From NCBI GenBank assembly GCA_965200965.1, contig OZ241744.1, positions 1,120,001 through 1,184,000 of the forward strand: DNA of 64,000 bases. The letters run 5' to 3'. The notes beneath the pieces were generated by a model. It had not been told where the DNA came from and searched no databases. It was given only the letters and a program-made list of their open reading frames with translations. Positions 8,516-45,173 of this stretch are shown here, piece after piece. Position numbers and translations under genes: made by a program. The DNA is from an uncultured Candidatus Binatia bacterium. Lineage in GTDB: Bacteria; Desulfobacterota; Binatia; Bin18. Positions within the stretch are counted from its first letter, which is position 1. Each line of letters opens with the position of its first letter.

Positions 8516-8795
8516 GCCCGCTCGTTGAGTGGCGTTGTCGGGAAGACCTGTTCGCAGAGGTTCAGCGCGTTGTCACCTTCCATGATCTTCACATGATCTT
8601 CAGGTACTCCAACGGCGTGTCGATGTTGTCGAGGTCGGCCTTCTGCCACCCTTCGGCGACCGCGTCGCTGTAGTCTGAAGTCTCAGGAATCGTCCTCCGG
8701 GTCGGCAGCCGACGAAAGAATGACCGAAGCCAGGGACAGGATCAGAGTCAAGGATAGATCGAAGCACTGCCGCATATCGTTACCCCCCTGGTTCT

Positions 8796-11752: not shown

Positions 11753-14272
11753 GAGCGTGCTCCCGATGAGGCCGGAACGGGCCAGCTCACCTGATCGGCC
11801 ACAGGAAATTCAACTGCCCAGACCGGCTTCTCGCTGGCAACCTGCCCGGTGCGGAGCCGTGCCAGAGGATAGGCCGGCAGCCGCACCGTCGCCAGACACT
11901 TGTCAGCAAACCGCGCCGCCTGCTGTACATGCGGCAGGTGCCGCCGGTGGAAGCTGAAATCCAGGACCGCAAACCCCAAGGACCGCTGCGCAGCGGCCAG
12001 CACCGCCCGGTCCCGGGGGAAGACATGCAGGAAGAAGCGCCCCCGCGTGTCCGCCCGCTGACACCCCTCTTTGACATACGTCAGGGTCCGCCCCTCCAGG
12101 TACAGGGCAAAGGCAGAGCGGGCCACCGGCGGGGCCGCCACCACCGCCCGGTATCGCGCCTCAAGCAGGTCGGTCGCACGCACGCCAGCAGCCGACCACG
12201 CCAGGGCAACGTGCCAGCGATCCACGCCCCCGGGGGCGATCAGGCGGGCTTCAAGGGTTTGGATCGCATACGGGGGCAGCAGGGGCCGGAGCAGACACGC
12301 CCCGTCAACGCGGACCCCGTAATCGGAAAAAATGAAGCCTCGCATCCAACGCCACGCGAGGCGGCCGGCAGCAGGACCCACCGTTTGCCTATCCCAGCCC
12401 TGGCCGAGGTTTGGCCTCCAACGCCACCCGGGGCGGCCAGCAGCGGCAGCGGGGTCCACGGGCACGACATGGACCACGAAACGCCCCCGCACATCGGCCG
12501 GCCGGCAGGGGGCCTTCACCCAGGTCAGGGTGGTCCCGTCCAGGTACAGGTCGAACGCCGAGCGGAGGAGGGGCGGCCCGGCGGTGGTGGCCCGGTAGAG
12601 TTGCCGGTAGCGCTCGACGGTGGCCGCGTCCACCAGGGCCGGGTCGCTTGCGCTCACCGTGAGGATGGTGTTGTTGTAGACTTGGCGGGTGTAGACAACG
12701 GGTGCGAAGGGGTGATCAAAGCGGTCTCCCCACCCAGTGAACACATGAGAGGTCACATAAAAGTCCCCCTCCTCCTCCATTCCATCGGCAAAGACGAGGC
12801 GACGCCGGTCTGCCTTGGGCAGGATGTCCCGGTTCATGGTGTACTGGAAGCCGGGACGGCCGCGGGGACGGTCCGGCACGAGAGAGATGGGTGAGGCGGG
12901 ATAGTGCTGGAGCAGATATTCCAGCCCCTCCCGGTACACCATCCGCCAGTAGTCCATGCCGTACTGCCCACGCAGATACTCGGGCGTACTCCGGTCCACC
13001 AGCCGGTTGAAATAGATGTACTGATGGGGATGAATCCCAACCATTTCGATGACCACGCCAGCCAGGCCAGCCACGGCCAGGCCATAGACACCGGCCCGCA
13101 GGGCCGGCCAGCGGCACACGCCAGCCAGCCGCCGCAGACCAGCCACGGCCAGCACACACAGCGGGGCGTAGAGGAAATACATCTGCCGCCAGCCGTTGTG
13201 GACATTGGCATTGAGGACGATGACGGCCCCAACGGGCAGGAGCACACAGGCCGCGAGCAGCCCCTCAAAGCGGGTGGTGGGGTTGCGGAGCAGCTCGCCG
13301 GGGTGGGTCAGAGTACGCCAGAGTACGCCAGCCGCCCCGATGAGGCTCAGCAGCAGCACGCCCGGCGGGGTGGTGATGGCCAGCCAGGTCGGAATGTAGT
13401 GCGCCGGAATGGCCGGCCAGTGGATGAGTTCGCCTTGAAAGAGCATAGGAGGACGGGTAGGGTGCTGGGAGAGGACTGCAATCGCGTCAAGCAGTTCCAG
13501 GGGATTGCTCCACAGATGGGGCGAGACCGCATACAGCGTCAAGACACTGGCCAGCCCGAACACCCCCAGCGTCCTCCCCACCTGCCGCCGCTCCGCCCGA
13601 TTTCCCGCCCGCACCCAATCCACTACCCGCATCACCATCACCGCCACAAACAATCCCCCACCCATGATGCGTAAGTTCGTTGCGACCCCCACCCCCACCC
13701 CACACAGCGCATACCCCCCCCCCCCGCTGCCACGCCCGGTGAATCAGGGCCAGACAGCCCAGGAAGGCCACCAGGAAGGGGATGTCCTTGGTGTTGAAAA
13801 ACGAGTGGGCATACAGCCGGGGATGGAGGACGAAGAGGCCGAGGGCCAGCAGGGCCAGCCAGCGGCTGCCGAACAGCCGGGCGGCCAGCCAGGCCGCGCC
13901 CCCGCCGCCAGCCAGAAAGCACAGGTGGGTGAGCAGATGGCGGCTCAAGTAGATGGCGCGGCTGTCGGTGAGGCCGAGCAGCCGCTCAACCAGCACCAGC
14001 GGCACTTCGAAGACAACGCCGTAGTAGCGGTTGTGGGGGGGACCGGGGGGGCCCAGGGTCTCGGTGTCGCCCAACGCATAGGCGACTGCCGTCTGGACAA
14101 TTCGGCGCTGATCTGTCTCGTCCCACGTCACCCCGTAATCGTCAAGGACGGCCATACCCACTACGGCCAGGACCGCCAGGGCCAGCAGAACACTGTGGCG
14201 GGCCACGAAGGCCACCGCCGCCGTGGACCAGCGGCCCACGCCCCGGACGACAGAGGGACGGCCGCTGGTCAT
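11749..14272 (-). pseudogene. Array copy C13: GT-C glycosyltransferase frameshifted at a G-tract; unique C-terminus
   Basis: Split into ORFs 13487..14272 and 11749..13698 at C12 (13714-13725), 5 nt shorter than in intact copies. Ends ...ASEKPVWAVEFPVADQVSWPVPASSGARS. Could be phase-OFF or a homopolymer sequencing error. Confidence 0.85.
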
Positions 14273-15966
14273 TGAGGGACTCCCGGCAGGGGCGGCCCGG
14301 CGGTGGTGGCCCGGTACAGTTGCCGGTAGCGCTCGGCGGTGGCCGCATCCACCATGGCCGGGTCGATCACGCTCACCGTGAGGATGGTGTTGTTGTAGAC
14401 TTGGCGGGTGTAGACAACGGGTGCGGAGGGGCGATCAAGACTGTAGCTGTGATCGGGCACATGAAAGTCTCCCTCCTCCTCCATTCCGTCGGCAAAGACG
14501 ATGCGACGCCGGGCTGCCTTGGGCAGGATACCCCGGTTCATGATGTACGGAGGGATGTGGCTCAGCACTATAGAGATAGGTGAGGCGGGATGGCGCTGGA
14601 GCAGATATTCCAGCCCCTCCCGGTACGCCGTCTCCCAATAGTCCATCTGGTACTGCCCACGCAGGTACTCGGGCGTGTGCCGGTCCACCAACCGGTTGAA
14701 ATAGAGGTACTGATGGGGATGAATCCCAACCATTTCGATGACCACACCAGCCAGGCCAGCCACGGCCAGGCCATAGACACCGGCCCGCAGGGCCGGCCAG
14801 CGGCACACGCCAGCCAGCCGCCGCAGACCGGCCACGGCCAGCAGACACAGCGGGGCGTAGAGGAAATACATGTGCCGCCAGCCATTGTAGACATTGGCAT
14901 TCAGGACGATGACGGCCCCAACGGGCAGGAGCACGCAGGCCACGAGCAGGCCCTCAAAGCGGGTGGTGGGGTTGCGGAGCAACTCGCCGGGGTGGGTCAG
15001 AGTCCGCCAGAGCACACCAGCCGTCCCGATGAGGCTCAGCAGCAGCACGCCCGGCGGGGTGGTGATGGCCAGCCAGGTCGGAATGTAGTGGGCCGGAATG
15101 GCCGGCCAGCGGATTGCCTCGCCTTGAAAGAGCATAGGAGGACGGTAAGGGTGCTGGGAGAGAACTGCAATCGCGTCAAGCAGTTCCAGCGGATTGCCCC
15201 ACAGATAGGGCGAGACCGCATACAGCGTCAAGGCACTGGCCAGCCCGAACACCCCCAGCGTCCTCCCCACCTGCCGCCGTTCCGCCCGACTCCCCGCCCA
15301 CACCCAATCCACCACCCGCATCACCATCACCGCCACAAACAATCCCCCACCCATGATGCGTAAGTTCGTTGCGACCCCCACCCCCACCCCACACAGCGCA
15401 TACGCCCCCACCCCCCCCCGCTGCCACGCCCGGTGAATCAGGGCCAGACAGCCCAGGAAGGCCACCAGGAAGGGGATGTCCTTGGTGTTGAAAAACGAGT
15501 GGGCATACAGCCGGGGATGGAGGACGAAGAGGCCGAGGGCCAGCAGGGCCAGCCAGCGGCTGCCGAACAGCCGGGAGGCCAGCCAGGCCGCGCCCCCGCC
15601 GCCGGCCAGAAAGCAGAGGTGGGTGAGCAGATGGCGGCTCAAGTGGATGGCGCGGCTGTCGGTGAGACCCAGCAGCCGCTCAACCAGCACCAGCGGCACT
15701 TCGAAGACAACGCCGTAGTAGCGGTTGTGGGAGGGACCGGGGGGGCGCAGGGTCTCGGTGTCGCCCAGCGCATAGGCGATTGCCGTCTGGGCAATTCGGC
15801 GTTGGGCTGTCTCGTCCCACGCCACCCCGTAATCGTCAAGGACGGCCACGCCCACCACGGCCAGGACCGCCAGGGCCAGCAGGACACTGTGGGCGGCCAC
15901 GAAGGCCACCGCCGCCGTGCCCCAGCCGGCCACGGACCGGGGAACGGAGGGACGCCCGCTGGTCAT
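14269..15966 (-). CDS. Array copy C12: GT-C glycosyltransferase lacking all C-terminal modules (565 aa)
   Basis: Intact ORF in which ...RATTAGPP is joined directly to the LPGVPQ tail. Confidence 0.9.
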   Translation of the reverse strand: MTSGRPSVPRSVAGWGTAAVAFVAAHSVLLALAVLAVVGVAVLDDYGVAWDETAQRRIAQTAIAYALGDTETLRPPGPSHNRYYGVVFEVPLVLVERLLGLTDSRAIHLSRHLLTHLCFLAGGGGAAWLASRLFGSRWLALLALGLFVLHPRLYAHSFFNTKDIPFLVAFLGCLALIHRAWQRGGVGAYALCGVGVGVATNLRIMGGGLFVAVMVMRVVDWVWAGSRAERRQVGRTLGVFGLASALTLYAVSPYLWGNPLELLDAIAVLSQHPYRPPMLFQGEAIRWPAIPAHYIPTWLAITTPPGVLLLSLIGTAGVLWRTLTHPGELLRNPTTRFEGLLVACVLLPVGAVIVLNANVYNGWRHMYFLYAPLCLLAVAGLRRLAGVCRWPALRAGVYGLAVAGLAGVVIEMVGIHPHQYLYFNRLVDRHTPEYLRGQYQMDYWETAYREGLEYLLQRHPASPISIVLSHIPPYIMNRGILPKAARRRIVFADGMEEEGDFHVPDHSYSLDRPSAPVVYTRQVYNNTILTVSVIDPAMVDAATAERYRQLYRATTAGPPLPGVPQ

Positions 15967-18112
15967 TGAGAGACTCCCGGCAGGGGCCGCCCAGCCCCGC
16001 CTCGCTCCGGCAACGCCACGTCCACCGCCCAGCCCCCGCCCGCCTCAGCGACCTGCCCGGTGCGCAGCCGTGCCAGAGGATAGGCCGGCAGCCGCACCGT
16101 CGCCAGACACTTGTCAGCAAACCGCGCCGCCTGCTGCACATGCGGCATGGCGTGCCACCCGTCAAAACCGAAATCCAGGACCGCAAACCCCAAGGACCGC
16201 CGCGCAGCGGCCAGCACCGCCCGGTCCCGGGGGAAGACCTCCAGGAAGAAGCGCCCCCGCGTGTCCGCCGGCTGACACCCCGCTTTGACATACGTCAAGG
16301 TCCGCCCCTCCAGGTACAGGGCAAAGGCAGAGCGGGCCACCGGCGGGGCCGCCACCACCGCCCGGTACCGCGCCTCAAGCAGGTCGGTGGCACGCACGCC
16401 AGCAGCCGACCACGCCAGGGCAACGTGCCAGCGATCCACGCCCTCAGGGGCGACCAGGCGGGCTCTAAGGGTTCGGATCGCATAGGGGGGCAGCGGGGGC
16501 CGGAGCAGACACGTCCCGTCAAAGCGGACCCCGTAATCGTAAAAATCGAAATGCAGGATTTCAATGCCTAGCCCCGGCCGCCACCCGGGGCGGTCGGCAG
16601 CGGCAGCGGGGTCCACGGGCACCACATAGACCACGAAGCGCCCCCGCACATCGTCCACGCGGCAGGGGGCCTTCGCCCAGCCCAAGGTGGCCCCGTCCAG
16701 GTACAGGTCAAACTCTGAGCGGAGGAGAGGCGGCCCGGCTGTGGTGGCCCAGTAGAGTTGCCGGTAGCGCTCGGCGGTGGCCGCCAGCCGGCTGAAATAG
16801 AGGTGCTGGTAGGGATGAAGCCCAACCATTTCGATGACCACGCCAGCCAAGCCAGCCACGGCCAGGCCATAGACACCGGCCCGCAGGGCCGGCCAGCGAC
16901 ACACACCAGCCAGCCGCCGCAGACCAGCCACGGCCAGCACACACAGCGGGGCGTAGAGGAAATACATGTGCCGCCAGCCCTCGTAGACATTGGCATTGAG
17001 GACGATGACGGCCCCAACGGGCAGGAGCACACAGGCCACGAGCAGCCCCTCAAAGCGGATGGTGGGGTTGCGGAGCAACTCGCCGGGGTGCGTCAGAGTC
17101 CGCCAGAGCACGCCAGCCGCCCCGATGAGGCTCAGCAGCAGCACGCCCGGCGGGGTGGTGATGGCCAGCCAGGTCGGAATGTAGTGCGCCGGAAGGTCCG
17201 GCCAGCGGATGACCTCGCCTTGAAAGAGCATAGTAGGACGGTGAGAGTGCTGGGAGAGAACTGCAATCGCGTCAAGCAACTCCAAGGGATTGCCCCACAG
17301 ATAGGGCGAGACCGCATACAGCGTCAAGACACTGGCCAGCCCGAACACCCCCAGCGTCCTCCCCACCTGCCGCCGCTCCGCCCGATTTCCCGCCCGCACC
17401 CAATCCACCACCCGCATCACCACCACCGCCACAAACAATCCCCCACCCATGATGCGTAAGTTCGTTGCGACCCCCACCCCCACCCCACACAGCGCATACG
17501 CCCCCCCCCCCCCCGCTGCCACGCCCGGTGAATCAGGGCCAGACAGCCCAGGAAGGCCACCAGGAAGGGGATATCCTTGGTGTTGAAAAACGAGTGGGCA
17601 TACAGCCGGGGATGGAGGACGAAGAGGCCGAGGGCCAGCAGGGCCAGCCAGCGGCTGCCGAACAGCCGGGAGGCCAGCCAAGCCGCGCCCCCGCCGCCAG
17701 CCAGAAAGCACAGGTGGGTGAGCAGATGGCGGCTCAAGTAGATGGCGCGGCTGTCGGTGAGACCCAGCAGCCGCTCAACCAGGACCAGCGGTACTTCGAA
17801 GACGACACCGTAGTAGCGGAGGGGGGGACCGGGGGGGCGCAGGGTCTCGGTGTCGCCCAGCGCATAGGCGATTGCCGCTTGGCCGATCCCACGTTGATCC
17901 TTCGCCGAGTCCAGCGCCACCCCGTTCCAATATTCCCGATCCCCGTATTCCCGATCCCCGTCCCACAACACCCCGTAATCGTCAAGAACGGCCACGCCCA
18001 CCACGGCCAGGACGGCCAGGGCCAGCAGGACACTGTGGCGGGCCACGAAGGCCACCGCCGCCGTGCCCCAGCCGGCCACGGACCGGACGACAGAGGGACG
18101 CCCGCTGGTCAT
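15963..18112 (-). pseudogene. Array copy C11: frameshifted at the G-tract and internally deleted
   Basis: C14 at 17501-17514 (1 nt short) splits ORFs 17417..18112 and 15963..17711. HLYFSRL is joined to AATAERY, removing about 110 aa of the soluble domain. Confidence 0.87.
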
Positions 18113-21100
18113 TGAGAGACTCCCGGCAGAGGTCGCCCAGCCCCGCCTCGCTCCGGCAACGCCACGTCCACCGCCCAGCCCCCGCCCGCCCCAGCGACCT
18201 GCCCGGTGCGGAGACGCGCCAGAGGATAGGCGGGCAGCCGCACCGTCGCCAGACACTTGTCAGCAAACCGCGCCGTCTGCTGTACATGCGAAATGTCATG
18301 CCGCCACCAGTCAAAACCGAAATCCAGGACCGCAAACCCCAAGGACCGCCGCGCAGCGGCCAGCACCGCCCGGTCCCGGGGAAAGACATGCAGGAAGAAG
18401 CGCCCCCGCGTGTCCGCCCGCTGACACCCCGCTTTGACATACGTCAGGGTCCGCCCCTCCAGGTACAGGGCAAAGGCAGAGCGGGCCACCGGCGGGGCCG
18501 CCACCACCGCCCGGTATCGCGCCTCAAGCAGGTCGGTCGCACGCACGCCAGCAGCCGACCACGCCAGGGCGACGTGCCAGCGATCCACGCCCCCGGGGGT
18601 GATCAGGCGGGCTTCAAGCGTTTGGATCGCATACGGGGGCAGCGGGGGCCGGAGCAGACACGCCCCGTCAAGGTGGACCCCGTAATCGAAAAAGTCGAAA
18701 CGCAGGATCTCACGGCCTGACCTCGGCCGCCACACAGGGCGGCCGGCAGCAGCAGCGGGGTCCACGGGCACCACAGAGACCACGAAGCGCCCCCGCACAT
18801 CGGCCGGCCGGCAGGGGGCCTTCACCCAACTCAAGGTGGCCCCGTCCCGGTACAGGTCAAACGCCGAGCGGAACAGGGGCCGCCCGGCGGTGGTGGCCCG
18901 GTAGAGTTGCCGGTAACGCTCGGCGGTGGCCGCCACCACCGGGTTAAGCACGCGCTCGGTCGCAGTCACCCCAGCAGGGGTCCACTCAATGGCGACGTGC
19001 AGGCGCTCTATGTTCCCGGGGGCGACCATGTGGACTTCAAGGGCCCGGATCGCATAGGGGGGCAGCGGGTGCCGGATCAGACACGTCCCGTCAAGGGAGG
19101 CCCCGTAATCGGAGAAGTCGAAATGCAGGATCTCACGGCCTGCCCCCGGCCGCCACCCGGGGCGGCCGGCAGCGGCAGCAGGGTCCACGGGTATGACATC
19201 AACCGCAAAGCGCCCCTGCACATCGGCCGGCCGGCAGGGGGCCTTCACCCAACTCAAGGTGGCCCCCTCCCGGTACAGGTCAAACGCCGAGCGGAACAGG
19301 GGCCGCCCGGCGGTGGTGGCCCGGTAGAGTTGCCGGTAGCGCTCGGCGGTGGCCGCCACCACCGGGTTAAGCACGCGCTCGGTCGCAGTCACCCCAGCAG
19401 GGGTCCACTCAATGGCGACGTGCAGATGCTCTATGTCCCCGGGGGCGATCATGCGGACTTCAAGGGTTTGGATCGCATAGGGGGGCAGCGGGGGCCGGAG
19501 CAGACACGCCCCGTCAACGCGGACCCCGTAATCGAAAAAGTCGAAATGCAGGACCTCACGGCCTGCCCCCGGCCGCCACCAGGGGCGGCCGGCAGCAGCA
19601 GCGGGGTCCACGGGTATGACATCGACCACGAAGCGCCCCCGCATATCGGCCGGGTGACAGGGGGCCTTCACCCAGGTCAGGGTGGCCCCGTCCAGGTACA
19701 GGTCAAACGCCGAGCGGAGCAGGGGCCGCCCGGCGGTGGTGGCTTGGTAGAGTTGCCGGTAGCGCTCGGCGGTGGCCGCATCCACCACGGTCGGGTCGAT
19801 CGCGCTCACCGTGAAGATGGTGTTGTTGTAGACTTGGCGGGTGTAGACAACGGGTGCGAAGGGGAGATTACGGCTCTTGTCCCGCGGGCTGGACATGTGA
19901 AAGTCCACTTCCTCCCCTATTCCGTCAGCGAAGACAATGCGACGCCGGTCCGCCTTGGGCAGGATAGCCCAGTTCACGGAATACTCCGCTAGAGAGATGG
20001 GTGAGGCGGGATAGTGCTGGAACAGATATTCCAGCCCCTCCCGGTACGCCGTCCACCAGTAGTCCATGCTGTACTGCCCACGCAGGTACTCGGGCGTATT
20101 CCGGTCCACCAGCCGGTTGAAATAGAGGTGCTGGTAGGGATGAAGCCCCACCATTTCGATGACCACACCGGCCAGGCCAGCCACGGCCAAGCCATAGACA
20201 CCGGCCCGCAGGGCCGGCCAGCGGCACATGCCAGCCAGCCGCCGCAGACCGGCCACAGCCAGCAGACACAGCGGGGCGTAGAGGAAATACATCTGCTGCC
20301 AACCGTTGTAGACGCTGGCATTGAGGACGATGACAGCCCCAACGGGCAGGAGCACGCAGGCCACGAGCAGCCCCTCAAAGCGGGTGGTGGGGTTGCGGAG
20401 CCACTCGCCGGGGTGGGTCAGAGTCTGCCAGAGCACACCAGCCGTCCCGATGAGGCTCAGCAGCAGCACGCCCGGCGGGGTGGTGATGGCCAGCCAGGTC
20501 GGAATGTAGTGGGCCGGAATGGCCGGCCAGCGGATGAGTTCGCCTTGAAAGAGCATAGTAGGACGGTGAGAGTGCTGGGAGAGAACTGCAATCGCGTCAA
20601 GCAACTCCAAGGGATTGCCCCACAGATAGGGCGAGACCGCATACAGCGTCAAGACACTGGCCAGCCCGAACACCCCCAGCGTCCTCCCCACCTGCCGCCG
20701 CTCCGCCCGATTTCCCGCCCGCACCCAATCCACTACCCGCATCACCATCACCGCCACAAACAATCCCCCGCCCATGATGCGTAAGTTCGTTGCGACCCCC
20801 ACCCCCACCCCACACAGCGCATACGCCCCCACCCCCCCCCGCTGCCACGCCCGATGAATCAGGGCCAGACAGCCCAGGAAGGCCACCAGGAAGGGGATGT
20901 CCTTGGTGTTGAAAAACGAGTGGGCATACAGCCGGGGATGGAGGACGAAGAGGCCGAGGGCCAGCAGGGCCAGCCAGCGGCTGCCGAACAGCCGGGCGGC
21001 CAGCCAGGCCGCGCCCCCGCCGCCGGCCAGAAAGCAGAGGTGGGTGAGCAGATGGCGGCTCAAGTAGATGGCACGGCTGTCGGTGAGACCCAGCAGCCGC

Positions 21101-34084: not shown

Positions 34085-36558
34085 TGAGGGACTCCCGGCA
34101 GGGGCCGCCCCGCCTCGCCTCGCTCCGGCAACGCCACATCCACCGCCCAGCCCCGGCCCGCCTCAGCGACCTGCCCGGTGCGGAGCCGTGCCAGAGGATA
34201 GGAGGGCAGTTGTACCGTCACCAGACACTTGTCAGCAAACCGCGCCGCCTGCTGTACATGCGAAATGTCATGCCGCCACCAGTCAAAACCGAAATCCAGG
34301 ACCGCAAACCCCAAGGACCGCTGCGCAGCGGCCAGCACCGCCCGGTCCCGGGGGAAGACCTCCAGGAAGAAGCGCCCCCGCGTGTCCGCCCACTGACACC
34401 CCTCTTTGACATACGTCAGGGTCCGCCCCTCCAGGTACAGAGCAAAGGCGGAACGGGCTACCGGCGGGGCCGCCACCACCGCCCGGTATCGCACCTCAAG
34501 CAGGTCGGTGGCGCGCACGCCAGCAACCGACCACGCCAGGGCGACGCGCCAGCGATCCACGCCCCCGGGGGCGATCAGGCGGGCTTCAAGGGTTTGGATC
34601 GCATAGGGGGGCAGCGGGGGCCGGAGCAGACACGCTCCGTCAAGGCGGACCCCGTAATCGGAAAAGTCGAAATGCAGGATCTCACGGCCTGCCCCCGGCC
34701 GCCACCCGGGGCGGCCGGCAGCGGCAGCGGGGTCCAAGGGCACGACATAGACCACGAAGCGCCCCCGCATATCGGCCGGGCGACAGGGGGCCTTCACCCA
34801 GGTCAGGGTGCTCCCCTCCAGGTACAGGTCAAACGCCGAGCGCAGCAGGGGCGGCCCGGCGGTGGCGGCCCGGTAGAGTTGCCGGTAGCGCTCGACGGTG
34901 GCCCCGTCCACCACGGCCGGGTCGATCGCGCGTACTGTAAAGATGGTGTTGTTGTAGACTTGGCGGGTGTAGACAATGGGTGCGGAGGGGAGCTCAAGCC
35001 CGTTGCCCCACACGTCAAACACACGACTGGTCACATAAAAGTCCCCCTCCTCCTCTATTCCGTCGGCAAAGACGAGGCGACGCCGGGCTGCCTTGGGCAG
35101 GATAGCCCGGTTCATGATGTACTTGAAGCTGTGACTGCCGCTGGAATGGCTCGACAGCAGAGAGATGGGTGAGGCGGGATAGTGCTGGAGCAGATATTCC
35201 AGCCCCTCCCGGTACGCCGTCTCCGAATGGTCCATTTCGTACTGCCCACGCAGGTACTCGGGCGTGTGCCGGTCCACCAACCGGTTGAAATAGATCTGCT
35301 GATGAGGATGAAGCCCAACCATTTCGATGACCATGCCAGCCACGCCAGCCACGGCCAAGCCATAGACACCGGCCCGCAGGGCGGGCCAGCGGCACACGCC
35401 AGCCAGCCGCCGCAGACCGGCCACGGCCAGCAGACACAGCGGGGCGTAGAGGAAATACATCTGCCGCCAGCCATTGTAGACGCTGGCATTGAGGACGATG
35501 ACGGCCCCAACGGGCAGGAGCACACAGGCCACGAGCAGCCCCTCAAAGCGGGTGGTGGGGTTGCGGAGCAACTCGCCGGGGTGGGTCAGAGTCCGCCAGA
35601 GCACGCCAGCCGCCCCGATGAGGCTCAGCAGCAGCACGCCCGGCGGGGTGGTGATGGCCAGCCAGGTCGGAATGTAGTGCGCCGGAATGGCCGGCCAGCG
35701 GATGACCTCGCCTTGAAAGAGCATAGAAGGACGGGTAGGGTGCTGGCCGAGGACTGCAATCGCGTCAAGCAGTTCCAGCGGATTGCCCCACAGATAGGGC
35801 GAGACCGCATACAGCGTCAAGACACCGGCCAGCCCGAACACCCCCAGCGTCCTCCCCACCTGCCGCCGCTCCGCCCGACTCCCCGCCCGCACCCAATCCA
35901 CCACCCGCATCACCACCACCGCCACAAACAATCCCCCACCCATGATGCGTAAGTTCGTTGCGACCCCCACCCCCACCCCACACAGCGCATACGCCCCCAC
36001 CCCCCCCCGCTGCCACGCCCGGTGAATCAGGGCCAGACAGCCCAGGAAGGCCACCAGGAAGGGGATGTCCTTGGTGTTGAAAAACGAGTGGGCATACAGC
36101 CGGGGATGGAGCACGAAGAGGCCGAGGGCCAGCAGGGCCAGCCAGCGGCTGCCGAACAGCCGGGCGGCCAGCCAGGCCGCCCCCCCGCCGCCGGCCAGAA
36201 AGCACAGGTGGGTGAGCAGATGGCGGCTCAAGTAGATGGCGCGGCTGTCGGTGAGACCCAGCAGCCGCTCAACCAGCACCAGCGGTACTTCGAAGACAAC
36301 GCCGTAGTAGCGGTTGAAGGGAAGACCGGGGGGGACGCGCAGGGTCTCGGTCTCGCCCAGCGCATAGGCGATTGCCGCCTGGCCGATCCCACGTTGCTGA
36401 CCCTCGTCCCACGTCACCCCGTAATCGTCAAGGACGGCCAGGCCCACCACAACCAGGATCGCCAAGGCCAGCAGGACACTGTGAGCGGCCACGAAGGCCA
36501 CCGCCTCCATGCCCCAGCCGGCCACGGACCGGACGACAGAGGGACGCCCGCTGGTCAT
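34081..36558 (-). CDS. Array copy C4: GT-C glycosyltransferase (825 aa)
   Basis: Intact ORF from the coupled ATG at 36558. Confidence 0.92.
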   Translation of the reverse strand: MTSGRPSVVRSVAGWGMEAVAFVAAHSVLLALAILVVVGLAVLDDYGVTWDEGQQRGIGQAAIAYALGETETLRVPPGLPFNRYYGVVFEVPLVLVERLLGLTDSRAIYLSRHLLTHLCFLAGGGGAAWLAARLFGSRWLALLALGLFVLHPRLYAHSFFNTKDIPFLVAFLGCLALIHRAWQRGGVGAYALCGVGVGVATNLRIMGGGLFVAVVVMRVVDWVRAGSRAERRQVGRTLGVFGLAGVLTLYAVSPYLWGNPLELLDAIAVLGQHPTRPSMLFQGEVIRWPAIPAHYIPTWLAITTPPGVLLLSLIGAAGVLWRTLTHPGELLRNPTTRFEGLLVACVLLPVGAVIVLNASVYNGWRQMYFLYAPLCLLAVAGLRRLAGVCRWPALRAGVYGLAVAGVAGMVIEMVGLHPHQQIYFNRLVDRHTPEYLRGQYEMDHSETAYREGLEYLLQHYPASPISLLSSHSSGSHSFKYIMNRAILPKAARRRLVFADGIEEEGDFYVTSRVFDVWGNGLELPSAPIVYTRQVYNNTIFTVRAIDPAVVDGATVERYRQLYRAATAGPPLLRSAFDLYLEGSTLTWVKAPCRPADMRGRFVVYVVPLDPAAAAGRPGWRPGAGREILHFDFSDYGVRLDGACLLRPPLPPYAIQTLEARLIAPGGVDRWRVALAWSVAGVRATDLLEVRYRAVVAAPPVARSAFALYLEGRTLTYVKEGCQWADTRGRFFLEVFPRDRAVLAAAQRSLGFAVLDFGFDWWRHDISHVQQAARFADKCLVTVQLPSYPLARLRTGQVAEAGRGWAVDVALPERGEAGRPLPGVPQ

Positions 36559-39005
36559 TGAGAGACTCCCGGCAGAGGTCGCCCAGCCCCGCCTCGCTCC
36601 GGCAACGCCACGTCCACCGCCCAGCCCCCGCCCGCCCCAGCGACCTGCCCGGTGCGGAGACGCGCCAGAGGATAGGCGGGCAGCCGCACCGTCGCCAGAC
36701 ACTTGTCAGCAAACCGCGCCGTCTGCTGTACATGCGAAATGTCATGCCGCCACCAGTCAAAACCGAAATCCAGGACCGCAAACCCCAAGGACCGCTGCGC
36801 AGCGGCCAGCACCGCCCGGTCCCGGGGAAAGACATGCAGGAAGAAGCGCCCCCGCGTGTCCGCCCGCTGACACCCCGCTTTGACATACGTCAGGGTCCGC
36901 CCGTCCAGGTAGAGGGCAAAGGCGGAGCGGGCCACCGGCGGGGCCGCCACCACCGCCCGGTACCGCGCCTCAAGCAGGTCGGTCGCACGCACGCCAGCAG
37001 CCGACCACGCCAGGGCAACGTGCCAGCGATCCACGCCCCCGGGGGTGATCAGGCGGGCTTCAAGCGTTTGGATCGCATAGGGGGGCAGCGGATGCCGGAT
37101 CAGACACGCCCCGTCAAGGTGGACCCCGTAATCGGAAAAGCGGAAGGGCAGGATCTCACGGCCTGGCCCCGGCCGCCACCGGGGGCGGCCGGCAGCAGCA
37201 GCAGGGTCCACGGGTACCACATAGACCACGAAGTGCCCCCGCACATCGGCCGGCCGACAGGGGGCCTTCACCCAGCTCAAGGTGGCCCCGTCCAAGTACA
37301 GGTCGAACTCTGAGCGGAGGAGGGGCGGCCCGGCTGTTGCAACCCGGTAGAACTGCCGGTAGCGCTCGACGGTGGCCGGGTCGCTCGCGCGCACTACGAG
37401 GATGGTGTTGTTGTAGACTTGGCGGGTGTAGATAATGGGTGCGAAGGGGCGATCATAGCGTGCTTCCCACCCTCTGAACCCACTATTGTGCAGAGAAAAG
37501 TCCCCCTCCTCCATTCCGTCGGCAATGACGAGGCGACGCCGGTCCGCCTTGGGCAGGATAGCCCGGTTCATGGTGTACGGATGGATGTCGTTGGGATGCT
37601 CCGGCACTAGAGAGACAGGTGAGGCGGGATAGCGCCGGAGCAGATATTCCAGCCCCTCCCGGTGCGCTGTCAGCCAGTAGTCCATGCCGTACTGCCCACG
37701 CAGGTACTCGGGCGTGTGCCGGTCCACCAGCCGGTTGAAATAGAGGTGCTGGTAGGGATGAAGCTCAACCATTTCGATGACCACACCAGCCAGGCCAGCC
37801 ACGGCCAAGCCATAGACACCGGCCCGCAGGGCTGGCCAGCGGCACACGCCAGCCAGCCGCCGCAGACCAGCCACAGCCAGCAGACACAGCGGGGCGTAGA
37901 GGAAATACATCTGCCGCCAGCCGTCGTAGACATTGGTATTCAGGACGATGACGGCCCCAACGGGCAGGAGCACGCAGGCCACGAGCAGGCCCTCAAAGCG
38001 GGTGGTGGGGTTGCGGAGCAACTCGCCGGGGTGGGTCAGAGTCTGCCAGAGCACGCCAGCCGCCCCGATGAGGCTCAGCAGCAGCACGCCCGGCGGGGTG
38101 GTGATGGCCAGCCAGGTCGGAATGTAGTGGGCCGGAATGGCCGGCCAGCGGATGAGTTCGCCTTGAAAGAGCATAGGAGAACGGAGAGGGTGCTGGGAGA
38201 GAACTGCAATCGCGTCAAGCAACTCCAAGGGATTGCCCCACAGATAGGGCGAGACCGCATACAGCGTCAAGACACCGGCCAGCCCGAACACCCCCAGCGT
38301 CCTCCCCACCTGCCGCCGCTCCGCCCGATTTCCCGCCCGCACCCAATCCACCACCCGCATCACCACCACCAGCACAAACAATCCCCCGCCCATGATGCGT
38401 AAGTTCGTTGCGACCCCCACCCCCACCCCACACAGCGCATACGCTCCCACCCCCCCCCGCTGCCACGCCCGGTGAATCAGGGCCAGACAGCCCAGGAAGG
38501 CGACCAGGAAGGGGATGTCCTTGGTGTTGAAAAACGAGTGGGCATACAGCCGGGGATGGAGGACGAAGAGGCCGAGGGCCAGCAGGGCCAGCCAGCGGCT
38601 GCCGAACAGCCGGGCGGCCAGCCAGGCCGCGCCCCCACCGCCCGCCAGAAAGCACAGGTGGGTGAGCAGATGGCGGCTCAAGTAGATGGCGCGGCTGTCG
38701 GTGAGACCCAGCAGCCGCTCAACCAGCACCAGCGGTACTTCGAAGACGACACCGTAGTAGCGGTTGTGGGGGGGACCGGGGGGGCGCAGGGTCTCGGTGT
38801 CGCCCAGCGCATAGGCGATTGCCGTCTGGCCTCTCCCACGTCGCAACTCCCCGTCCACCCCCACCCCGTAATCGTCAAGGACGGCCAGACCCACCACGGC
38901 CAGCACCGCCAGGGCCAGCAGGACACTGTGGCGGGCCACGAAGGCCACCGCCGCTGTGCCCCAGCCGGCCACGCCCCGGAGGACGGAGGGACGCCCGCTG
39001 CTCAT
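36555..39005 (-). CDS. Array copy C3: GT-C glycosyltransferase (816 aa)
   Basis: Intact ORF as in the ORF track. Confidence 0.92.
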   Translation of the reverse strand: MSSGRPSVLRGVAGWGTAAVAFVARHSVLLALAVLAVVGLAVLDDYGVGVDGELRRGRGQTAIAYALGDTETLRPPGPPHNRYYGVVFEVPLVLVERLLGLTDSRAIYLSRHLLTHLCFLAGGGGAAWLAARLFGSRWLALLALGLFVLHPRLYAHSFFNTKDIPFLVAFLGCLALIHRAWQRGGVGAYALCGVGVGVATNLRIMGGGLFVLVVVMRVVDWVRAGNRAERRQVGRTLGVFGLAGVLTLYAVSPYLWGNPLELLDAIAVLSQHPLRSPMLFQGELIRWPAIPAHYIPTWLAITTPPGVLLLSLIGAAGVLWQTLTHPGELLRNPTTRFEGLLVACVLLPVGAVIVLNTNVYDGWRQMYFLYAPLCLLAVAGLRRLAGVCRWPALRAGVYGLAVAGLAGVVIEMVELHPYQHLYFNRLVDRHTPEYLRGQYGMDYWLTAHREGLEYLLRRYPASPVSLVPEHPNDIHPYTMNRAILPKADRRRLVIADGMEEGDFSLHNSGFRGWEARYDRPFAPIIYTRQVYNNTILVVRASDPATVERYRQFYRVATAGPPLLRSEFDLYLDGATLSWVKAPCRPADVRGHFVVYVVPVDPAAAAGRPRWRPGPGREILPFRFSDYGVHLDGACLIRHPLPPYAIQTLEARLITPGGVDRWHVALAWSAAGVRATDLLEARYRAVVAAPPVARSAFALYLDGRTLTYVKAGCQRADTRGRFFLHVFPRDRAVLAAAQRSLGFAVLDFGFDWWRHDISHVQQTARFADKCLATVRLPAYPLARLRTGQVAGAGGGWAVDVALPERGGAGRPLPGVSQ

Positions 39006-42000
39006 TGAGGGACGCCCGGCAGGGGCCGCCCCGGCCCGCCTCGCTCCGGCAACGCCACGTCCACCGCCCAGCCCCCGCCCGCCTCAGCGACCTGCCCGGT
39101 GCGCAGCCGTGCCAGAGGATAGGAGGGCAGTTGTACCGTCGCCAGACACTTGTCAGCAAACCGCGCCGCCTGCTGTACATGCGGCATGGCGTGCCACCCG
39201 TCAAAACCGAAATCCAGGACCGTAAACCCCAAGGACCGCCGCGCAGCGGCCAGCACCGCCCGGTCCCGGGGGAAGACCTCCAGGAAGAAGAGCCCTTGCG
39301 TGTCCGCCCGCTGACACCCCGCTTTGACATACGTCAAGGTCCGCCCCTCCAGGTAGAGGGCAAAGGCAGAGCGGGCCACCGGCGGGGCCGCCACCACCGC
39401 CCGGTACCGTGCCTAAGCAGGTCGGTCGTGCGCACGCCAGCAGCCGACCACGCCAGGGCAACGTGCCAGCGATCCACGCCCTCGAGGGTGATCACACGGG
39501 CTTCAAGCGTTTGGATCGCATACGGGGGCAGCGGATGCCGGAGCAGACACGTCCCGTCAAGGGAGGCCCCGTAATCGGCAAAGCGGAAGGGCAGGATCTC
39601 ACGGCCTGCCCCCGGCCGCCACCGGGGGCGACCGGCAGCAGCAGCGGGGTCCACGGGCACCACATAGACCACGAAGCGCCCCTGCACATCGGCCGGCCGG
39701 CAGGGGGCCTTCACCCAACTCAAGGTGGCCCCCTCCCGGTACAGGTCAAACGCCGAGCGGAGCAGGGGCCGCCCCGCGGTGGTGGCCCGGTAGAGTTGCC
39801 GGTAGCGCTCGGCGGTGGCCCCGTCCACCGGGTCAAGCACGCGCTCGGTCGCAGTCACCCCAGCAGGGGTCCACTCAATGTCGACGTGCAGGCGCTCTAT
39901 GTCCCCGGGGGCGACCATGTGGACTTCAAGGGCCCGAATCGCATAGGGGGGCAGCGGACGCCGGAGCAGACACGTCCCGTCAAGGTAGGCCCCGTAATCG
40001 GAGAAGTCGAAATGCAGGATCTCACGGCCTGCCCCCGGCCGCCACCCGGGGCGGCCGGCAGCGGCAGCAGGGTCCACGGGTATGACATCGACCGCGAAGC
40101 GCCCCTGCACATCGGCCGGCCGGCAGGGGGCCTTCACCCAACTCAAGGTGGCCCCCTCCAGGTACAGGTCAAACGCCGAGCGGAGCAGGGGCCGCCCGGC
40201 GGTGGTGGCCCGGTAGAGTTGCCGGTAGCGCTCGGCGGTGGCCGCCACCACCGGGTTAAGCACGCGCTCGGTCGCAGTCACCCCAGCAGGGGTCCACTCA
40301 ATGTCGACGTGCAGGCGCTCTATGTCCCCGGGGGCGACCATATGGACTTCCAGGGCCCGGATCGCATAGGGGGGCAGCGGATGCCGGAGCAGACACGTCC
40401 CGTCAAGGTAGGCCCCGTAATCGGAGAAGTCGAAATGCAGGATCTCACGGCCTGCCCCCGGCCGCCACCCGGGGCGGCCGGCAGCAGCAGCAGGGTCCAC
40501 GGGTATGACATCGACCGTGAAACGCCCCTGCACATCGGCCAAGTTACAGGGGGCCTTCACCCAGCTCAAGGTGGCCCCCTCCCGGTACAGGTCAAACGCC
40601 GAGCGGAACAGGGGCGGCCCGGCGGTGGTGGCCCGGTACAGTTGCCGGTAGCGCTCGGCGGTGGCCGCATCCACCGGGTCAGGCACGCGCTCGGTCGCAG
40701 TCACCCCAGCAGGGCTCCACCCAATGTCGACGTGCCAGTCAATGTCGACGTGCCAGTGATCTGCTCTCCCTTTCCCGGGGGTGATCAGGCGGACTTCAAG
40801 GGCGTGGATCGGATAGGGGGGCAGCGGGTGCCGGAGCAGGCACGCCCCGTCAACGCGGACCCCGTAATCGAAAAAGTCGAAATGCAGGACCTCAGCGGCA
40901 GCGGGGTCCACGGGCACGACATGGACCACGAAGCGCCCCTGCATATCGGCCGGCCGGCAGGGGGCCTTCACCCAACTCAGGGTGCTCCCGTCCAGGTACA
41001 GGTCAAACACCGAGCGGAGCAGGGGTGGCCCCGCGGTGGTGGCCCGGTAGAGTTGCCGGTAGCGCTCGGCGGTGGCCGCATCCACCACGGCCGGGTCGAT
41101 CGCGCTCACCGTGAAGATGGTGTTGTTGTAGACTTGGCGGGCGTAGACAATGGGTACGAAGGAGCGATCACGGCTCTTGTCCCACGGGTTGGACATGTGC
41201 TCGGTCACATGAAAGTCCCCCTCCTCCTCCTCCACTCCGTCGGCAAGGATGATGCGACGCCGGGCTGCCTTGGGCAGGATAGCCCGGTTCATGATGTCCG
41301 GAGAGATGCGGTCCGGCACTAGAGAGATGGGTGAGGCCGGATAGCGTTGAAGCAGATATTCCAGCCCCTCCCGGTACGCCATCCGCCAGGGGTCCATGTC
41401 ATACTGCCCACGCAGATACTCGGGCGTACTCCGGTCCACCAGCCGGTTGAAATAGAGGTGCTGGTAGGGATGAAGCCCAACCATTTCGATGACCACGCCA
41501 GCCAGGCCAGCCACGGCCAAGCCATAGACACCGGCCCGCAGGGCCGGCCAGCGGCATACGCCAGCCAGCCGCCGCAGACCAGCCACGGCCAGCAGACACA
41601 GCGGGGCGTAGAGGAAATACATCTGCCGCCAGCCGTCGTAGACATTGGCATTGAGGACGATGACGGCCCCAACGGGCAGGAGCACGCAGGCCACGAGCAG
41701 GCCCTCAAAGCGGGTGGTGGGGTTGCGGAGCAACTCGCCGGGGTGGGTCAGAGTCCGCCAGAGCACGCCAGCCGCCCCGATGAGACTCAGCAGCAGCACG
41801 CCCGGCGGGGTGGTGATGGCCAGCCAGGTCGGAATGTAGTGCGCCGGAAGGTACGGCCAACTGATGAACTCGCCTTGAAAGAGCATAGTAGGACGGGTAG
41901 GGTGCTGGCCGAGGACTGCAATCGCGTCAAGCAATTCCAAGGGATTGCCCCACAGATAGGGCGAGACCGCATACAGCGTCAAGGCACTGGCCAGCCCGAA

Positions 42001-42717
42001 CACCCCCAGCGTCCTCCCCACCTGCCGCCGTTCCGCCCGACTCCCCACTCGCACCCAATCCACCACCCGCATCACCACCACCGCCACAAACAATCCCCCG
42101 CCCATGATGCGTAAGTTCGTTGCGACCCCCACCCCCACCCCACACAGCGCATACGCTCCCACCCCCCCCCGCTGCCACGCCCGATGAATCAGGGCCAGAC
42201 AGCCCAGGAAGGCCACCAGGAAGGGAATGTCCTTGGTGTTGAAAAACGAGTGGGCATACAGCCGGGGATGGAGCACGAAGAGGCCGAGGGCCAGCAGGGC
42301 CAGCCAGCGGCTGCCGAACAGCCGGGAGGCCAGCCAGGCCGCGCCCCCGCCGCCGGCCAGAAAGCAGAGGTGGGAGAGCAGATGGCGGCTCAAGTAGATG
42401 GCGCGGCTGTCGGTGAGACCCAGCAGCCGCTCAACCAGCACCAGCGGCACTTCGAAGACAACGCCGTAGTAGCGGTTGTGGGGGGGACTGGGGGGGCGCA
42501 GGGTCTCGGTGTCGCCCAGCGCATAGGCGACTGCCGCCTGGCCGATCCCACGTTGACCCGGATCGTCCCGCCCCACCCCGTAATCGTCAACAACGGCCAG
42601 ACCCACCACGGCCAGGACGGCCAGGGCCAGCAGGACACTGTGGCGGGCCACGAAGGCCACCGCCGCCGTGCCCCAGCTGGCCACGGACCGGGGAACAGAG
42701 GGACGCCCGCTGGTCAT
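39002..42717 (-). CDS. Array copy C2: GT-C glycosyltransferase with 4 internal modules; terminal module separated by a 1-nt frameshift
   Basis: ORF 39334..42717 (1127 aa) plus 39002..39397. gcctaagcag at 39411 replaces the consensus gcctcaagcag. Confidence 0.85.
39420..41080 (-). repeat. Intragenic ~423-bp module x4 in C2
   Basis: ATAERYRQLYRATTAG occurs four times; shadow ORFs at 39897 and 40320 are offset by 423; 18-bp tandem duplication at 40722-40757 (HVDIDWHVDIGW). Confidence 0.92.
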
Positions 42718-45173
42718 TGAGAGACTCCCGGCAGGGGTCGCCCCGCCCCGCCTCGCTCCGGCAACGCCATGTCCACCGCCCAGCCCCGGCCCGCCTCAGC
42801 AACCTGCCCAGTACGGAGACGCGCCAGAGGATAGGCGGGCAGCCGCACCGTCGCCAGACACTTGTCAGCAAACCGCGCCGCCTGCTGTACATGCGGCATG
42901 GCGTGCCGCCACCAGTCGTCAAAACTAAAATCCAGGACCGCAAACCCCAAGGACCGCTGCGCAGCGGCCAGCACCGCCCGCTCCCGGGGGAAGACCTCCA
43001 GGAAGAAGCGCCCCCGTGTGTCCGCCCGCTGACACCCCGCTTTGACATACGTCAGGGTCCGCCCCTCCAGGTACAGGGCAAAGGCAGAGCGGGCCACCGG
43101 CGGGGCCGCCACCACCGCCCGGTATCGCGCCTCAAGCAGGTCGGTGGCGCGCACGCCAGCAGCCGACCACGCCAGGGCGACGTGCCAGCGATCCACGCCC
43201 CCGGGGGTGATCAGGCGGGCTTCAAGCGTTTGGATCGCATACGGGGGCAGCGGATGCCGGATCAGACACGCCCCGTCAAGGTGGACCCCGTAATCGGAGA
43301 AGTCGAAATGCCGGATCTCACGGCTTGGCCCCGGCCGCCACCCGGGGCGGCCGGCAGCGGCAGCGGGGTCCACGGGCACGACATAGACCACGAAGCGCCC
43401 CCGCACATCGTCCGGACGACAGGGGGCCTTCACCCAGCTCAAGGTGTCCCCGTCCCGGTACAGGTCAAACGCCGAGCGGAGCAGGGGCCGCCCGGCGGTG
43501 GTGGCCCGGTAGAACTGCCGGTAGCGCTCGGCGGTGGCCCCGTCCACCAGGGCCGGGTCGATCGCGAGCACCGTGAGGATGGTGTTGTTGTAGACTTGAC
43601 GGGTGTAGACAACGGGTGCGAAGGGGCGATCAAAACTGGACACATGATTGGTCATATAAAAGTCCCCCTCCTCCTCCTCCTCTATTCCGTCAGCGAAGAC
43701 AATGCGACGCCGGGCTGCCTTGGGCAGGATACCCCGGTTCATGGTGTACGCATGGATGTTGATATAGTCCGTCACTAGAGAGATGGGTGAGGCGGGCTGA
43801 CGCTGAAGCAGATATTCCAGCCCCTCCCGGTGCGCCGTCAGCCAGTAGTCCATGTCATACTGCCCACGCAGATACTCGGGCGTGCGCCGGTCCACCAGCC
43901 GGTTGAAATAGATCTGCTGGTAGGGATGAAGCCCAACCATTTCGATGACCAGGCCAGCCACGCCAGCCACGGCCAAGCCATAGACACCGGCCCGCAGGGC
44001 TGGCCAGCGACACACGCCAGCCAGCCGCCGCAGACCAGCCACGGCCAGCAGACACAACGGAGCGTAGAGGAAATACATGTGCCGCCAGCCACTGTAGACA
44101 TTGGCATTCAGGACGATGACGGCCCCAACGGGCAGGAGCACGCAGGCCACGAGCAGGCCCTCAAAGCGGGTGGTGGGGTTGCGGAGCAACTCGCCGGGGT
44201 GGGTCAGAGTCCGCCAGAGCACGCCAGCCGCCCCGATGAGGCTCAGCAGCAGCACGCCCGGCGGGGTGGTGATGGCCAGCCAAGTCGGAATGTAGTGCGC
44301 CGGAATGGCCGGCCAACTGATGAACTCGCCTTGAAAGAGCATAGTAGGACGGTAAGGGCGCTGGGAGAGGACTGCAATCGCGTCAAGCAGCTCCAAGGGA
44401 TTGCCCCACAGATAGGGCGAGACCGCATACAGCGTCAAGACACTGGCCAGCCCGAACACCCCCAGCGTCCTCCCCACCTGCCGCCGTTCCGCCCGACTCC
44501 CCGCTCGCACCCAATCCACTACCCGCATCACCATCACCGCCACAAACAATCCCCCACCCATGATGCGTAAGTTCGTTGCGACCCCCACCCCCACCCCACA
44601 CAGCGCATACGCCCCCCCCCCCCCCCGCTGCCACGCCCGGTGAATCAGGGCCAGACAGCCCAGGAAGGCCACCAGGAAGGGAATGTCCTTGGTGTTGAAA
44701 AACGAGTGGGCATACAGCCGGGGATGGAGCACGAAGAGGCCGAGGGCCAGCAGGGCCAGCCAGCGGCTGCCGAACAGCCGGGAGGCCAGCCAGGCCGCCC
44801 CCCCGCCGCCAGCCAGAAAGCACAGGTGGGTGAGCAGATGGCGGCTCAAGTGGATGGCGCGGCTGTCGGTGAGATCCAGCAGCCGCTCAACCAGCACCAG
44901 CGGTACTTCGAAGACGACACCGTAGTAGCGGTTCTGGGGGGGACCGGGGGGGCGCAGGGTCTCGGTCTCGCCCAGCGCATAGGCGATTGCCGCCTGGCCG
45001 ATCCCGTGTTGCTGATCCCCGTCCAACCCCACCGCGTAATCGTCAAGGACGGCCAGTCCCACCACAACCAGGACCGCCAGGGCCAGCGGGACACCATGGG
45101 CGGCCACGAAGGCCACCGCCGCCGTGGACCAGCGGGCCACGCCCCGGAGGACGGAGGGACGCCTGCTTGTCAT
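42714..45173 (-). CDS. Array copy C1: GT-C glycosyltransferase (819 aa)
   Basis: ATG 45173 overlaps the TGA of the upstream GT2 remnant; carries an uninterrupted in-frame C15 tract at 44612-44626. Confidence 0.92.
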   Translation of the reverse strand: MTSRRPSVLRGVARWSTAAVAFVAAHGVPLALAVLVVVGLAVLDDYAVGLDGDQQHGIGQAAIAYALGETETLRPPGPPQNRYYGVVFEVPLVLVERLLDLTDSRAIHLSRHLLTHLCFLAGGGGAAWLASRLFGSRWLALLALGLFVLHPRLYAHSFFNTKDIPFLVAFLGCLALIHRAWQRGGGGAYALCGVGVGVATNLRIMGGGLFVAVMVMRVVDWVRAGSRAERRQVGRTLGVFGLASVLTLYAVSPYLWGNPLELLDAIAVLSQRPYRPTMLFQGEFISWPAIPAHYIPTWLAITTPPGVLLLSLIGAAGVLWRTLTHPGELLRNPTTRFEGLLVACVLLPVGAVIVLNANVYSGWRHMYFLYAPLCLLAVAGLRRLAGVCRWPALRAGVYGLAVAGVAGLVIEMVGLHPYQQIYFNRLVDRRTPEYLRGQYDMDYWLTAHREGLEYLLQRQPASPISLVTDYINIHAYTMNRGILPKAARRRIVFADGIEEEEEGDFYMTNHVSSFDRPFAPVVYTRQVYNNTILTVLAIDPALVDGATAERYRQFYRATTAGRPLLRSAFDLYRDGDTLSWVKAPCRPDDVRGRFVVYVVPVDPAAAAGRPGWRPGPSREIRHFDFSDYGVHLDGACLIRHPLPPYAIQTLEARLITPGGVDRWHVALAWSAAGVRATDLLEARYRAVVAAPPVARSAFALYLEGRTLTYVKAGCQRADTRGRFFLEVFPRERAVLAAAQRSLGFAVLDFSFDDWWRHAMPHVQQAARFADKCLATVRLPAYPLARLRTGQVAEAGRGWAVDMALPERGGAGRPLPGVSQ

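Follow-up and report, generated by a model that had tools for sequence, protein, structure and literature searches.

Tandem GT-C glycosyltransferase genes with hypervariable, shuffled outer loops in an uncultured Candidatus Binatia bacterium

We analyzed a 64,000-nucleotide stretch of DNA, here called the window, from an uncultured Candidatus Binatia bacterium (assembly GCA_965200965.1, contig OZ241744.1, positions 1,120,001 to 1,184,000; G000:C1:1120001-1184000, where G000 is the 3.62-Mb single-contig genome). At window positions 11749-45173 its minus strand carries 13 head-to-tail genes for predicted GT-C glycosyltransferases (array A, copies U01-U13), and a second array in the same genome (array B, G000:C1:271.7-305.6 kb, 271700-305620) has a further 13 copies, giving 26 in total. 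On balance, we lean towards the view that the array copies keep one catalytic core, trade segments of their outer loops and likely differ in cell-surface acceptor or linkage.

Variable sites cluster in predicted periplasmic loops

With the topology drawn by hand from AlphaFold secondary structure and high entropy defined as more than 1.5 bits, we found 26 high-entropy columns among 251 periplasmic positions of array A, and none among 217 transmembrane (TM) or 55 cytoplasmic ones. In the congeneric genome G007, the corresponding numbers are 51 of 254, 4 of 217 and 0 of 54. Non-synonymous change is strongly clustered: the variance of 10-codon sums is 52.2, whereas permuting the columns 2000 times gave at most 18.5. 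A preliminary description of this DNA had pictured a near-invariant scaffold with short variable patches, which agrees with these data; all patches lie on the predicted periplasmic face, and every motif quoted there was located in the window copies. It had also placed the variation within 14060..45040, where the patches are indeed found, but the later loops of U13 extend below 14060, to 11749. Its statement that only the Asp is fixed after an LDDY motif needs correction, as a V at position -3 from this Asp is fixed as well (13/13 copies).

We numbered the loops on U04, all coordinates being on the minus strand. L1 comprises residues 49-57 of external loop 1 (EL1; 36388..36414), with variable positions 49, 50, 53, 54 and 57 around the fixed D51 (encoded at 36406-36408), and L2 is the indel-rich, Pro-rich EL1 linker, residues 74-82 (36313..36339). 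L3 lies in EL4 between TM7 and TM8 (residues 271-290, 35689..35748; variable sites 275, 277, 278, 285 and 290) and carries the strongest selection signal, while L4 (EL5, residues 359-363, 35470..35484) adjoins the conserved W364-R365. The periplasmic domain contains L5 (residues 441-447, 35218..35238; sites 441, 444 and 446) and the two indel-rich loops L6 (466-484, 35107..35163) and L7 (508-524, 34987..35037), both of low model confidence and exposed in appearance. The same loops are variable in a second assembly and in the arrays of other species; the Spearman correlation of the entropy profile with that of the window is 0.71 for array B, 0.47 for G007, 0.29 for G014 (a genome of the same family) and 0.43 for other phyla.

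A GT-C fold with a conserved catalytic set

An AlphaFold2 model made from 83 sequences (predicted local distance difference test score, pLDDT, 84.6) has 11 TM helices and aligns with PMT, STT3/AglB/PglB, ALG12 and ArnT at VIA-align Z scores of 20-25 over 329-450 residues. It displays the conserved 7-TM module and the long EL1 with juxtamembrane helices that are traits of the GT-C superfamily, and by this model the array proteins belong to that superfamily, in the PMT/ArnT clan. PF13231 scored above its curated cut-off of 26.1 bits in 10 of the 11 in-frame copies, U07 reaching 20.1, and no sequence in the PDB matched the array protein at E 1.

Conservation was assessed over 238 homologues, namely the 13 window copies and 225 near-full-length distinct sequences retained from 292 hidden Markov model matches in fetched loci after 67 partial, broken or duplicate ones had been dropped; loci that overlap and sister species both contribute to this set. 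Of the 238, D51 is conserved in 233, D164 and R204 in all 238, and R365 in 231. The four residues are placed like D55, D158, K203 and the phosphate-binding EL5 Arg of ArnT (PMC7801869), and D51 opens the first external helix (residues 50-66) as D55 does in ArnT, an equivalence drawn by topology without residue-level superposition. The earlier proposal of an ArnT/PMT-type enzyme with an EL1 Asp was thus borne out by the model and by the placement of the fixed D. Because the catalytic set is fixed in 231-238 of the 238 homologues, the array enzymes look active. The Asp is fixed while the residues adjoining it vary, and E52 is replaced by G in 5 of 25 G000 copies. According to the structural studies cited here, the ArnT acceptor site is formed by EL1, EL2 and EL4 (PMC7801869), the catalytic Asp of PimE sits at the tip of juxtamembrane helix 1 with neighbouring residues contacting the acceptor (PMC12041525), and the acceptor binds between external loops and a luminal dome (PMC10154233). 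Judged solely from topology, the variable loops would converge on the substrate cavity.

Loop segments are shuffled among copies and between arrays

Four-gamete incompatibility rises from 0.23 for sites less than 10 nt apart to 0.50 at 11-30 nt and reaches a plateau near 0.6, linkage being gone within about 30 nt. Whole loops are common to otherwise unlike copies, also across the two arrays (U10/B_008, U13/B_009), and each of the 24 scorable G000 copies has a unique loop set. A second, 3.60-Mb assembly from a sister strain encodes new mosaics such as P0018. Among its first 30 protein matches 15 were used for scoring; 12 have cores identical to G000 copies, and P0003 (core same as P0001), P0028 and P0030 (deleted or frameshifted) were left out. 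At 169 of 220 differences between the strains both residues are present in other paralogues, compared with 11.7% expected from random point mutation. Judged by these patterns, gene conversion has shuffled the copies into mosaics, with reshuffling from strain to strain.

The G007 arrays share flanks with arrays A and B (60-98% identity), and since the flanks are syntenic both loci predate the split between G000 and G007. The copies nevertheless group by species, which makes this a case of concerted evolution, acting also between loci 850 kb apart.

A very improbable explanation for the pattern is that it stems from a programmed mutator, such as a diversity-generating retroelement, or from misassembly. 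Some of the poly-G frameshifts described below do resemble assembly errors. The variable fraction by base in the loops, however, is 0.56 for A, 0.52 for C, 0.50 for G and 0.49 for T, a private insertion in U11 is found unchanged and without mismatch in 4/4 sequencing runs from three studies, and these loops recur in the second assembly and in other species. In view of the missing adenine bias, a diversity-generating retroelement was rejected as a candidate (a reverse transcriptase and a template repeat were not searched for). The loops had been likened to complementarity-determining regions; this holds only in a loose sense, the shuffling agent being gene conversion between copies.

Probable diversifying selection at a subset of codons

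The preliminary description had predicted diversifying selection with a dN/dS ratio (omega) above 1 in the loops. This was not what we found: one-ratio omega across the loops is 0.85, 0.68 and 0.89 in array A, array B and G007 (0.23, 0.21 and 0.30 in the scaffold), and with loop-wide values below 1, diversifying selection over whole loops is not supported by these sequences. Site models gave a different picture, with likelihood-ratio test (LRT) values for M2a against M1a of 107.8 (A), 219.8 (A+B) and 202.8 (G007), a class near omega 4, and at most 27.5 in 12 recombination nulls for array A. Allowing the rate to vary among codons, in fits limited to 18 iterations, cut the LRT from 107.8 to 15.3 (A) and from 64.3 to 5.9 (A+B, indel-free loops), and the EL1 sites lost significance. 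The G007 value was 96.6 under this model, and one of three free-recombination nulls exceeded it (recombination alone gave 26-107). With a signal that shrinks under rate variation and a null that exceeds the G007 value, tree-based site models were dropped as evidence.

Because tree-based tests are unreliable under such recombination, we relied on a tree-free test, in which 128 indel-free periplasmic codons were ranked by variability in one species, the top 15 were chosen, and non-synonymous diversity (piN) at these codons was set against synonymous diversity (piS) in another. A first tree-free ratio, of about 3, is biased upward by ~1.3-1.45 under neutrality and is given only relative to simulated nulls. 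The cross-validated ratios piN(selected)/piS are 2.32 (window to G007), 3.76 (window to Vicinamibacterales) and 2.93 (G007 to window). A neutral null, with medians of 1.3-1.4, reached these values in 1, 0 and 2 of 200 runs, and a null with mild hot codons in 4, 0 and 5. All three ratios were reached jointly in 0/200 runs of every null. The joint test is strict, since simulated data in which omega was 4 for 10% of codons (medians 2.1-2.5) reached all three in just 2/200 runs. Nine sites are common to the top 15 of the window and of G007 (50, 53, 54, 275, 278, 285, 431, 441 and 444).

Besides the loop-wide omega values and the fate of the site models, several observations speak against selection for diversity. 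Synonymous change is clustered too (5.28, permutation maximum 4.82) and is ~1.5-fold higher in the loops of arrays A and B. A null with strong hot codons shared between species reached the window-to-G007 ratio in 44/200 runs (0 and 26 of 200 for the window-to-Vicinamibacterales and G007-to-window ratios), and same-codon piN/piS, at 1.5-2.2, lies inside the nulls. Nine window-chosen sites gave ratios of 1.24-3.26 in eight further genomes, uncalibrated values that are lower in old, saturated arrays; the older arrays gave 1.2-1.8, with an interval spanning 1 in 3/8 genomes. The loop-wide omega values, the raised and clustered synonymous change, the shrinking site-model signal and the same-codon ratios fit an alternative in which the copies are redundant and kept for dosage, the loops are merely relaxed, and diverged loops resist gene conversion so that variation persists without selection for diversity. 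That the loops are the generally variable parts of the family also fits. We regard this alternative as unlikely, though as one that deserves weight: the cross-validated ratios lie above the neutral null and, taken together, above all the nulls that were run, no synonymous hot spots shared between species were seen (rho 0.17, -0.02 and -0.10 over 46, 79 and 40 codons), cytoplasmic loops remain conserved, dS in the G007 loops is not elevated (0.41 versus 0.42), and drift is hard to square with eight separate expansions of the family (below). What stands of the earlier prediction is a repeatable subset of codons, about 10-15, whose amino-acid diversity exceeds neutral nulls, and diversifying selection at these is probable.

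Proposed donor and acceptor of the array enzymes

In the mechanism that we propose, a GT2 like those adjoining several arrays would make a polyprenyl-phosphate-sugar donor, from which each enzyme would pass a single sugar to an extracytoplasmic acceptor. The array would have been built through unequal crossing-over, with gene conversion both keeping the scaffold uniform and making new loop combinations, and diversifying selection keeping pocket residues different. Because one synthase stands beside many GT-Cs with fixed phosphate-binding residues, we infer that the diversity lies in the acceptor rather than in the donor. The acceptor would most likely be a surface glycan or glycoprotein. LpxC is present in G000 and was found in 1 of 5 other carrier genomes tested (completeness not given), so lipid A cannot be assumed as a general acceptor. 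The pressure would probably be recognition of the product by phage or by the sponge host.

A GtrB-like GT2 adjoins genes of the family in 6 of 27 genomes mapped, broken in G000 and intact in the other five. The G000 remnant (window 45170-45783; gene at 45170..45742, minus strand), which is GtrB/PgfS/ArnC-like and has an internal deletion, lies directly upstream of array A, its 3' end replaced by the ~50-nt tail of an array unit; the tail marks a repeat boundary. Another GT2 is located in G000 at C1:625365. That the adjacent GT2 is broken counts against the proposed mechanism, as does the failure to find GtrA (PF04138 had 0 matches in G000, which is 99.3% complete).

One improbable alternative is that the targets glycosylated by the panel are not on the cell's own surface but are varied host or environmental amphiphiles, such as sponge defence chemicals and lipids, met at the membrane surface. 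There is a precedent in the vertebrate UGT1/UGT2 clusters, whose tandem transferase paralogues have four hypervariable regions that form the acceptor pocket and contain positively selected sites (PMC1885805). Repeated expansion in unrelated lineages suggests a common external pressure, and array B and several other arrays are located away from glycan loci. Array A, however, is placed inside a surface-glycan locus whose other genes are of the WcaJ, Wzy_C, GT4, SGNH and carbamoyltransferase types, and characterised GT-Cs are known to modify the cell's own lipids, glycans or proteins. Slightly less probable still is that the loops vary to escape a binder of the protein itself, for instance a phage entry protein, a host peptide or an inhibitor, with catalytic specificity unchanged. 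Variation only in outward-facing parts, including the seemingly exposed L6 and L7, would be expected in that case. Since G000 encodes LpxC, however, the loops would sit behind an outer membrane, and the best-supported sites are found beside the catalytic Asp and in EL4, a loop that in the ArnT study lines the substrate sites (PMC7801869). Variation in acceptor choice remains the reading that we prefer.

Distribution across genomes

Of 41 genomes searched, four matched at E 1e-20: G000, G007, G014 and G004. G007 has at least 43 full-length copies in the regions examined, its arrays running off contig or region ends, and G014 has 13; G004, of the same genus as G000, has only broken pieces, and its loci L024 and L025 look like a decaying array. 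A genome scan yielded 63 loci, out of 219 matches, from 24 metagenome-assembled genomes labelled Spirochaetia, Dehalococcoidia, Vicinamibacterales, Gammaproteobacteria, Latescibacterota, Nitrospirales and others. Taxa of this kind are typical of sponge symbionts.

In a midpoint-rooted FastTree tree each cluster of copies belongs to one genome or to a sister pair (G000 25, G007 43, G014 13, Spirochaetia 29 and 13, Vicinamibacterales 13, Dehalococcoidia 59 and 10), which amounts to eight separate expansions across several phyla. G014, although of the same family as G000, is far off in the tree, and the gammaproteobacterial set is sister to G000 and G007; this placement suggests horizontal transfer. 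Array proteins had no phage match and one plasmid match at 28%. The G014 array stands between two ~690-aa proteins, one a TMEM260-like O-mannosyltransferase (L021:2231-6362). A sulfotransferase and a GT2 lie upstream of a G007 array (L011:18040-19790) and an arylsulfotransferase adjoins a Spirochaetia array (L026:3671-5701), neighbours that hint at possible sulfated glycans.

Organization of the array and its surroundings

Adjacent units of array A are coupled by ATGA stop/start overlaps, with starts at 45173, 42717, 39005, 36558, 34084, 31640, 28779, 26311, 23870, 21387, 18112, 15966 and 14272 for U01 to U13. Each consists of a membrane core of ~555 aa, 90-95% identical in nucleotide sequence among window copies, followed by 0-5 C-terminal modules of ~135 aa. 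On the minus strand throughout, U01 (42714..45173) encodes 819 aa with 2 modules, and U02 (39002..42717) has 5 modules and a 1-base frameshift near 39400, in the last of them. U03 (36555..39005) encodes 816 aa, U04 (34081..36558), the copy modelled, 825 aa, and U05 (31637..34084) 815 aa. U06 (28776..31640) is longer, at 954 aa with 3 modules; it is followed by U07 (26308..28779; 823 aa), U08 (23867..26311; 814 aa), U09 (21384..23870; 828 aa) and U10 (18109..21387; 1092 aa with 4 modules). U11 (15963..18112) has an 18-residue EL1 insertion and, near 17514, a G14 frameshift, and a deletion has taken away the greater part of its periplasmic domain; the insertion is 54 nt (window 17862-17975) and contains a short internal repeat. 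U12 (14269..15966; 565 aa) is without a complete C-terminal module, and the final gene, U13 (11749..14272), has a unique tail and a G12 frameshift near 13725.

A G9-T-G5 tract appears as a pure G run in U01, U11, U13 and one array-B copy (window 44626, 17514 and 13725; G000:C1:285705). The sole contig across the U11 tract is of the T form in 4/4 runs, these being Logan contigs, which merge paralogues, cannot phase units and never span one unit; the sister-assembly protein P0028 is in frame at this position. We consider assembly error a likelier source of the poly-G frameshifts than phase variation. Several sequencing runs containing the stretch are labelled sponge metagenome, and no RNA run is among those listed.

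The C-terminal modules are predicted β-sandwiches bearing two Cys, with matches only to generic Ig/FN3-like folds (best Z 7.8), no Pfam family and nothing returned by an Atlas search. In U04 the pair (34084..34896, minus strand) has 7 high-entropy columns in 244 and variable patches at module positions 63-78 and 209. Module number changes by internal duplication, and one may guess at a role as spacer or binder. Outside the family, three unrelated membrane proteins of G000 carry the module as a fusion (window 6425-8515; G000:C1:790082-794962).

Downstream of array A, 6425..11752 (minus strand), a region with synteny in G007, encodes GT4, Wzy_C and another PMT_2 protein, which bears a single module. 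Two similar SGNH/GDSL-like paralogues (window 148-1416 and 5149-6591) lie on either side of WcaJ, and such relatives form the commonest neighbour cluster of the GT-C family (14/27 genomes; a cluster without annotation). Window 59401-61503 encodes an IctB/O-antigen-ligase-like membrane protein with a long C-terminal extension. Array B has, judged by sequence alone, a PheS/PheT-like gene pair on one side and a BamA/TamB-like pair on the other.

Discussion

ArnT (GT83; PDB 5EZM/5F15), of the PMT/ArnT clan (PF13231), resembles the array proteins in fold (Z 22.7-23.2, 409-418 aligned residues), with an 11-TM core in which EL1 and EL4 are long, acidic and basic catalytic residues at matching positions and a C-terminal periplasmic domain. 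The array proteins differ from it in their 16-17% identity, added β-sandwich modules, 13-43 tandem copies and occurrence in genomes where LpxC was not found; no NCBIfam family matched U04 or U07 at E 0.01, and no arn genes were present among the flanking proteins scanned. RgtA-D of Rhizobium are likewise several GT-C paralogues, each modifying a different position, and one GT2, RgtE, supplies the donor for them. They are, however, four diverged genes with fixed roles, and we know of no array, conversion or hypervariable loops among them. RgtA/B add galacturonic acid to Kdo (PMC4402001). One Atlas feature match bears the automatic cluster name RgtA/B/C/D-like. The gtrABC genes of Salmonella and its phages, described as a source of O-antigen glucosylation diversity with recombination and gene shuffling (PMC3688519), combine a GtrB-type GT2 with a variable GT-C to yield surface diversity. 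In that system there are 1-4 operons per genome and the diversity is between GtrC families, whereas the arrays comprise dozens of copies that are 80-90% identical and shuffle loops within the gene; neither GtrA nor a phage match was found. By the membership tests made, the array proteins fall outside both ArnT and gtrABC. The UGT1/UGT2 clusters are eukaryotic, of GT-B fold and evolve by birth and death with little gene conversion, in contrast to the bacterial, GT-C and conversion-dominated arrays. Trypanosomatid glycosyltransferase arrays reportedly comprise multi-copy surface-glycosylation transferases with lineage-specific expansion; they differ in being eukaryotic and dependent on uridine diphosphate (UDP)-sugars. 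By analogy, the bacterial arrays would work like RgtA-D or GtrC and evolve like UGT1 clusters, but with conversion-driven loop shuffling among dozens of copies.

We found no description of bacterial GT-C arrays in the open-access literature covered, supplements aside; the portion consulted of a report that GT83 is abundant in sponge Chloroflexi does not mention arrays (PMC6306507). Collapse of arrays in short-read assemblies may explain why they were missed. Tentatively, we suggest that they form an enzyme repertoire, spread horizontally and expanded separately by unrelated sponge symbionts, with gene conversion reassorting about eight specificity loops over a constant catalytic scaffold, which might create new surface-glycosylation specificities under host or phage pressure. 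Bacterial surface diversity usually arises by the swapping of whole glycosylation islands or by genes being switched on and off. Here it appears to arise inside one enzyme family, with pocket loops reshuffled among as many as 43 copies or more, and to have done so repeatedly across several phyla. Should specificity depend on the loops, the arrays would be a natural mutagenesis library from which the GT-C residues that select the acceptor could be read, a question difficult to address for these enzymes, and a candidate route by which sponge symbionts may tune host or phage recognition.

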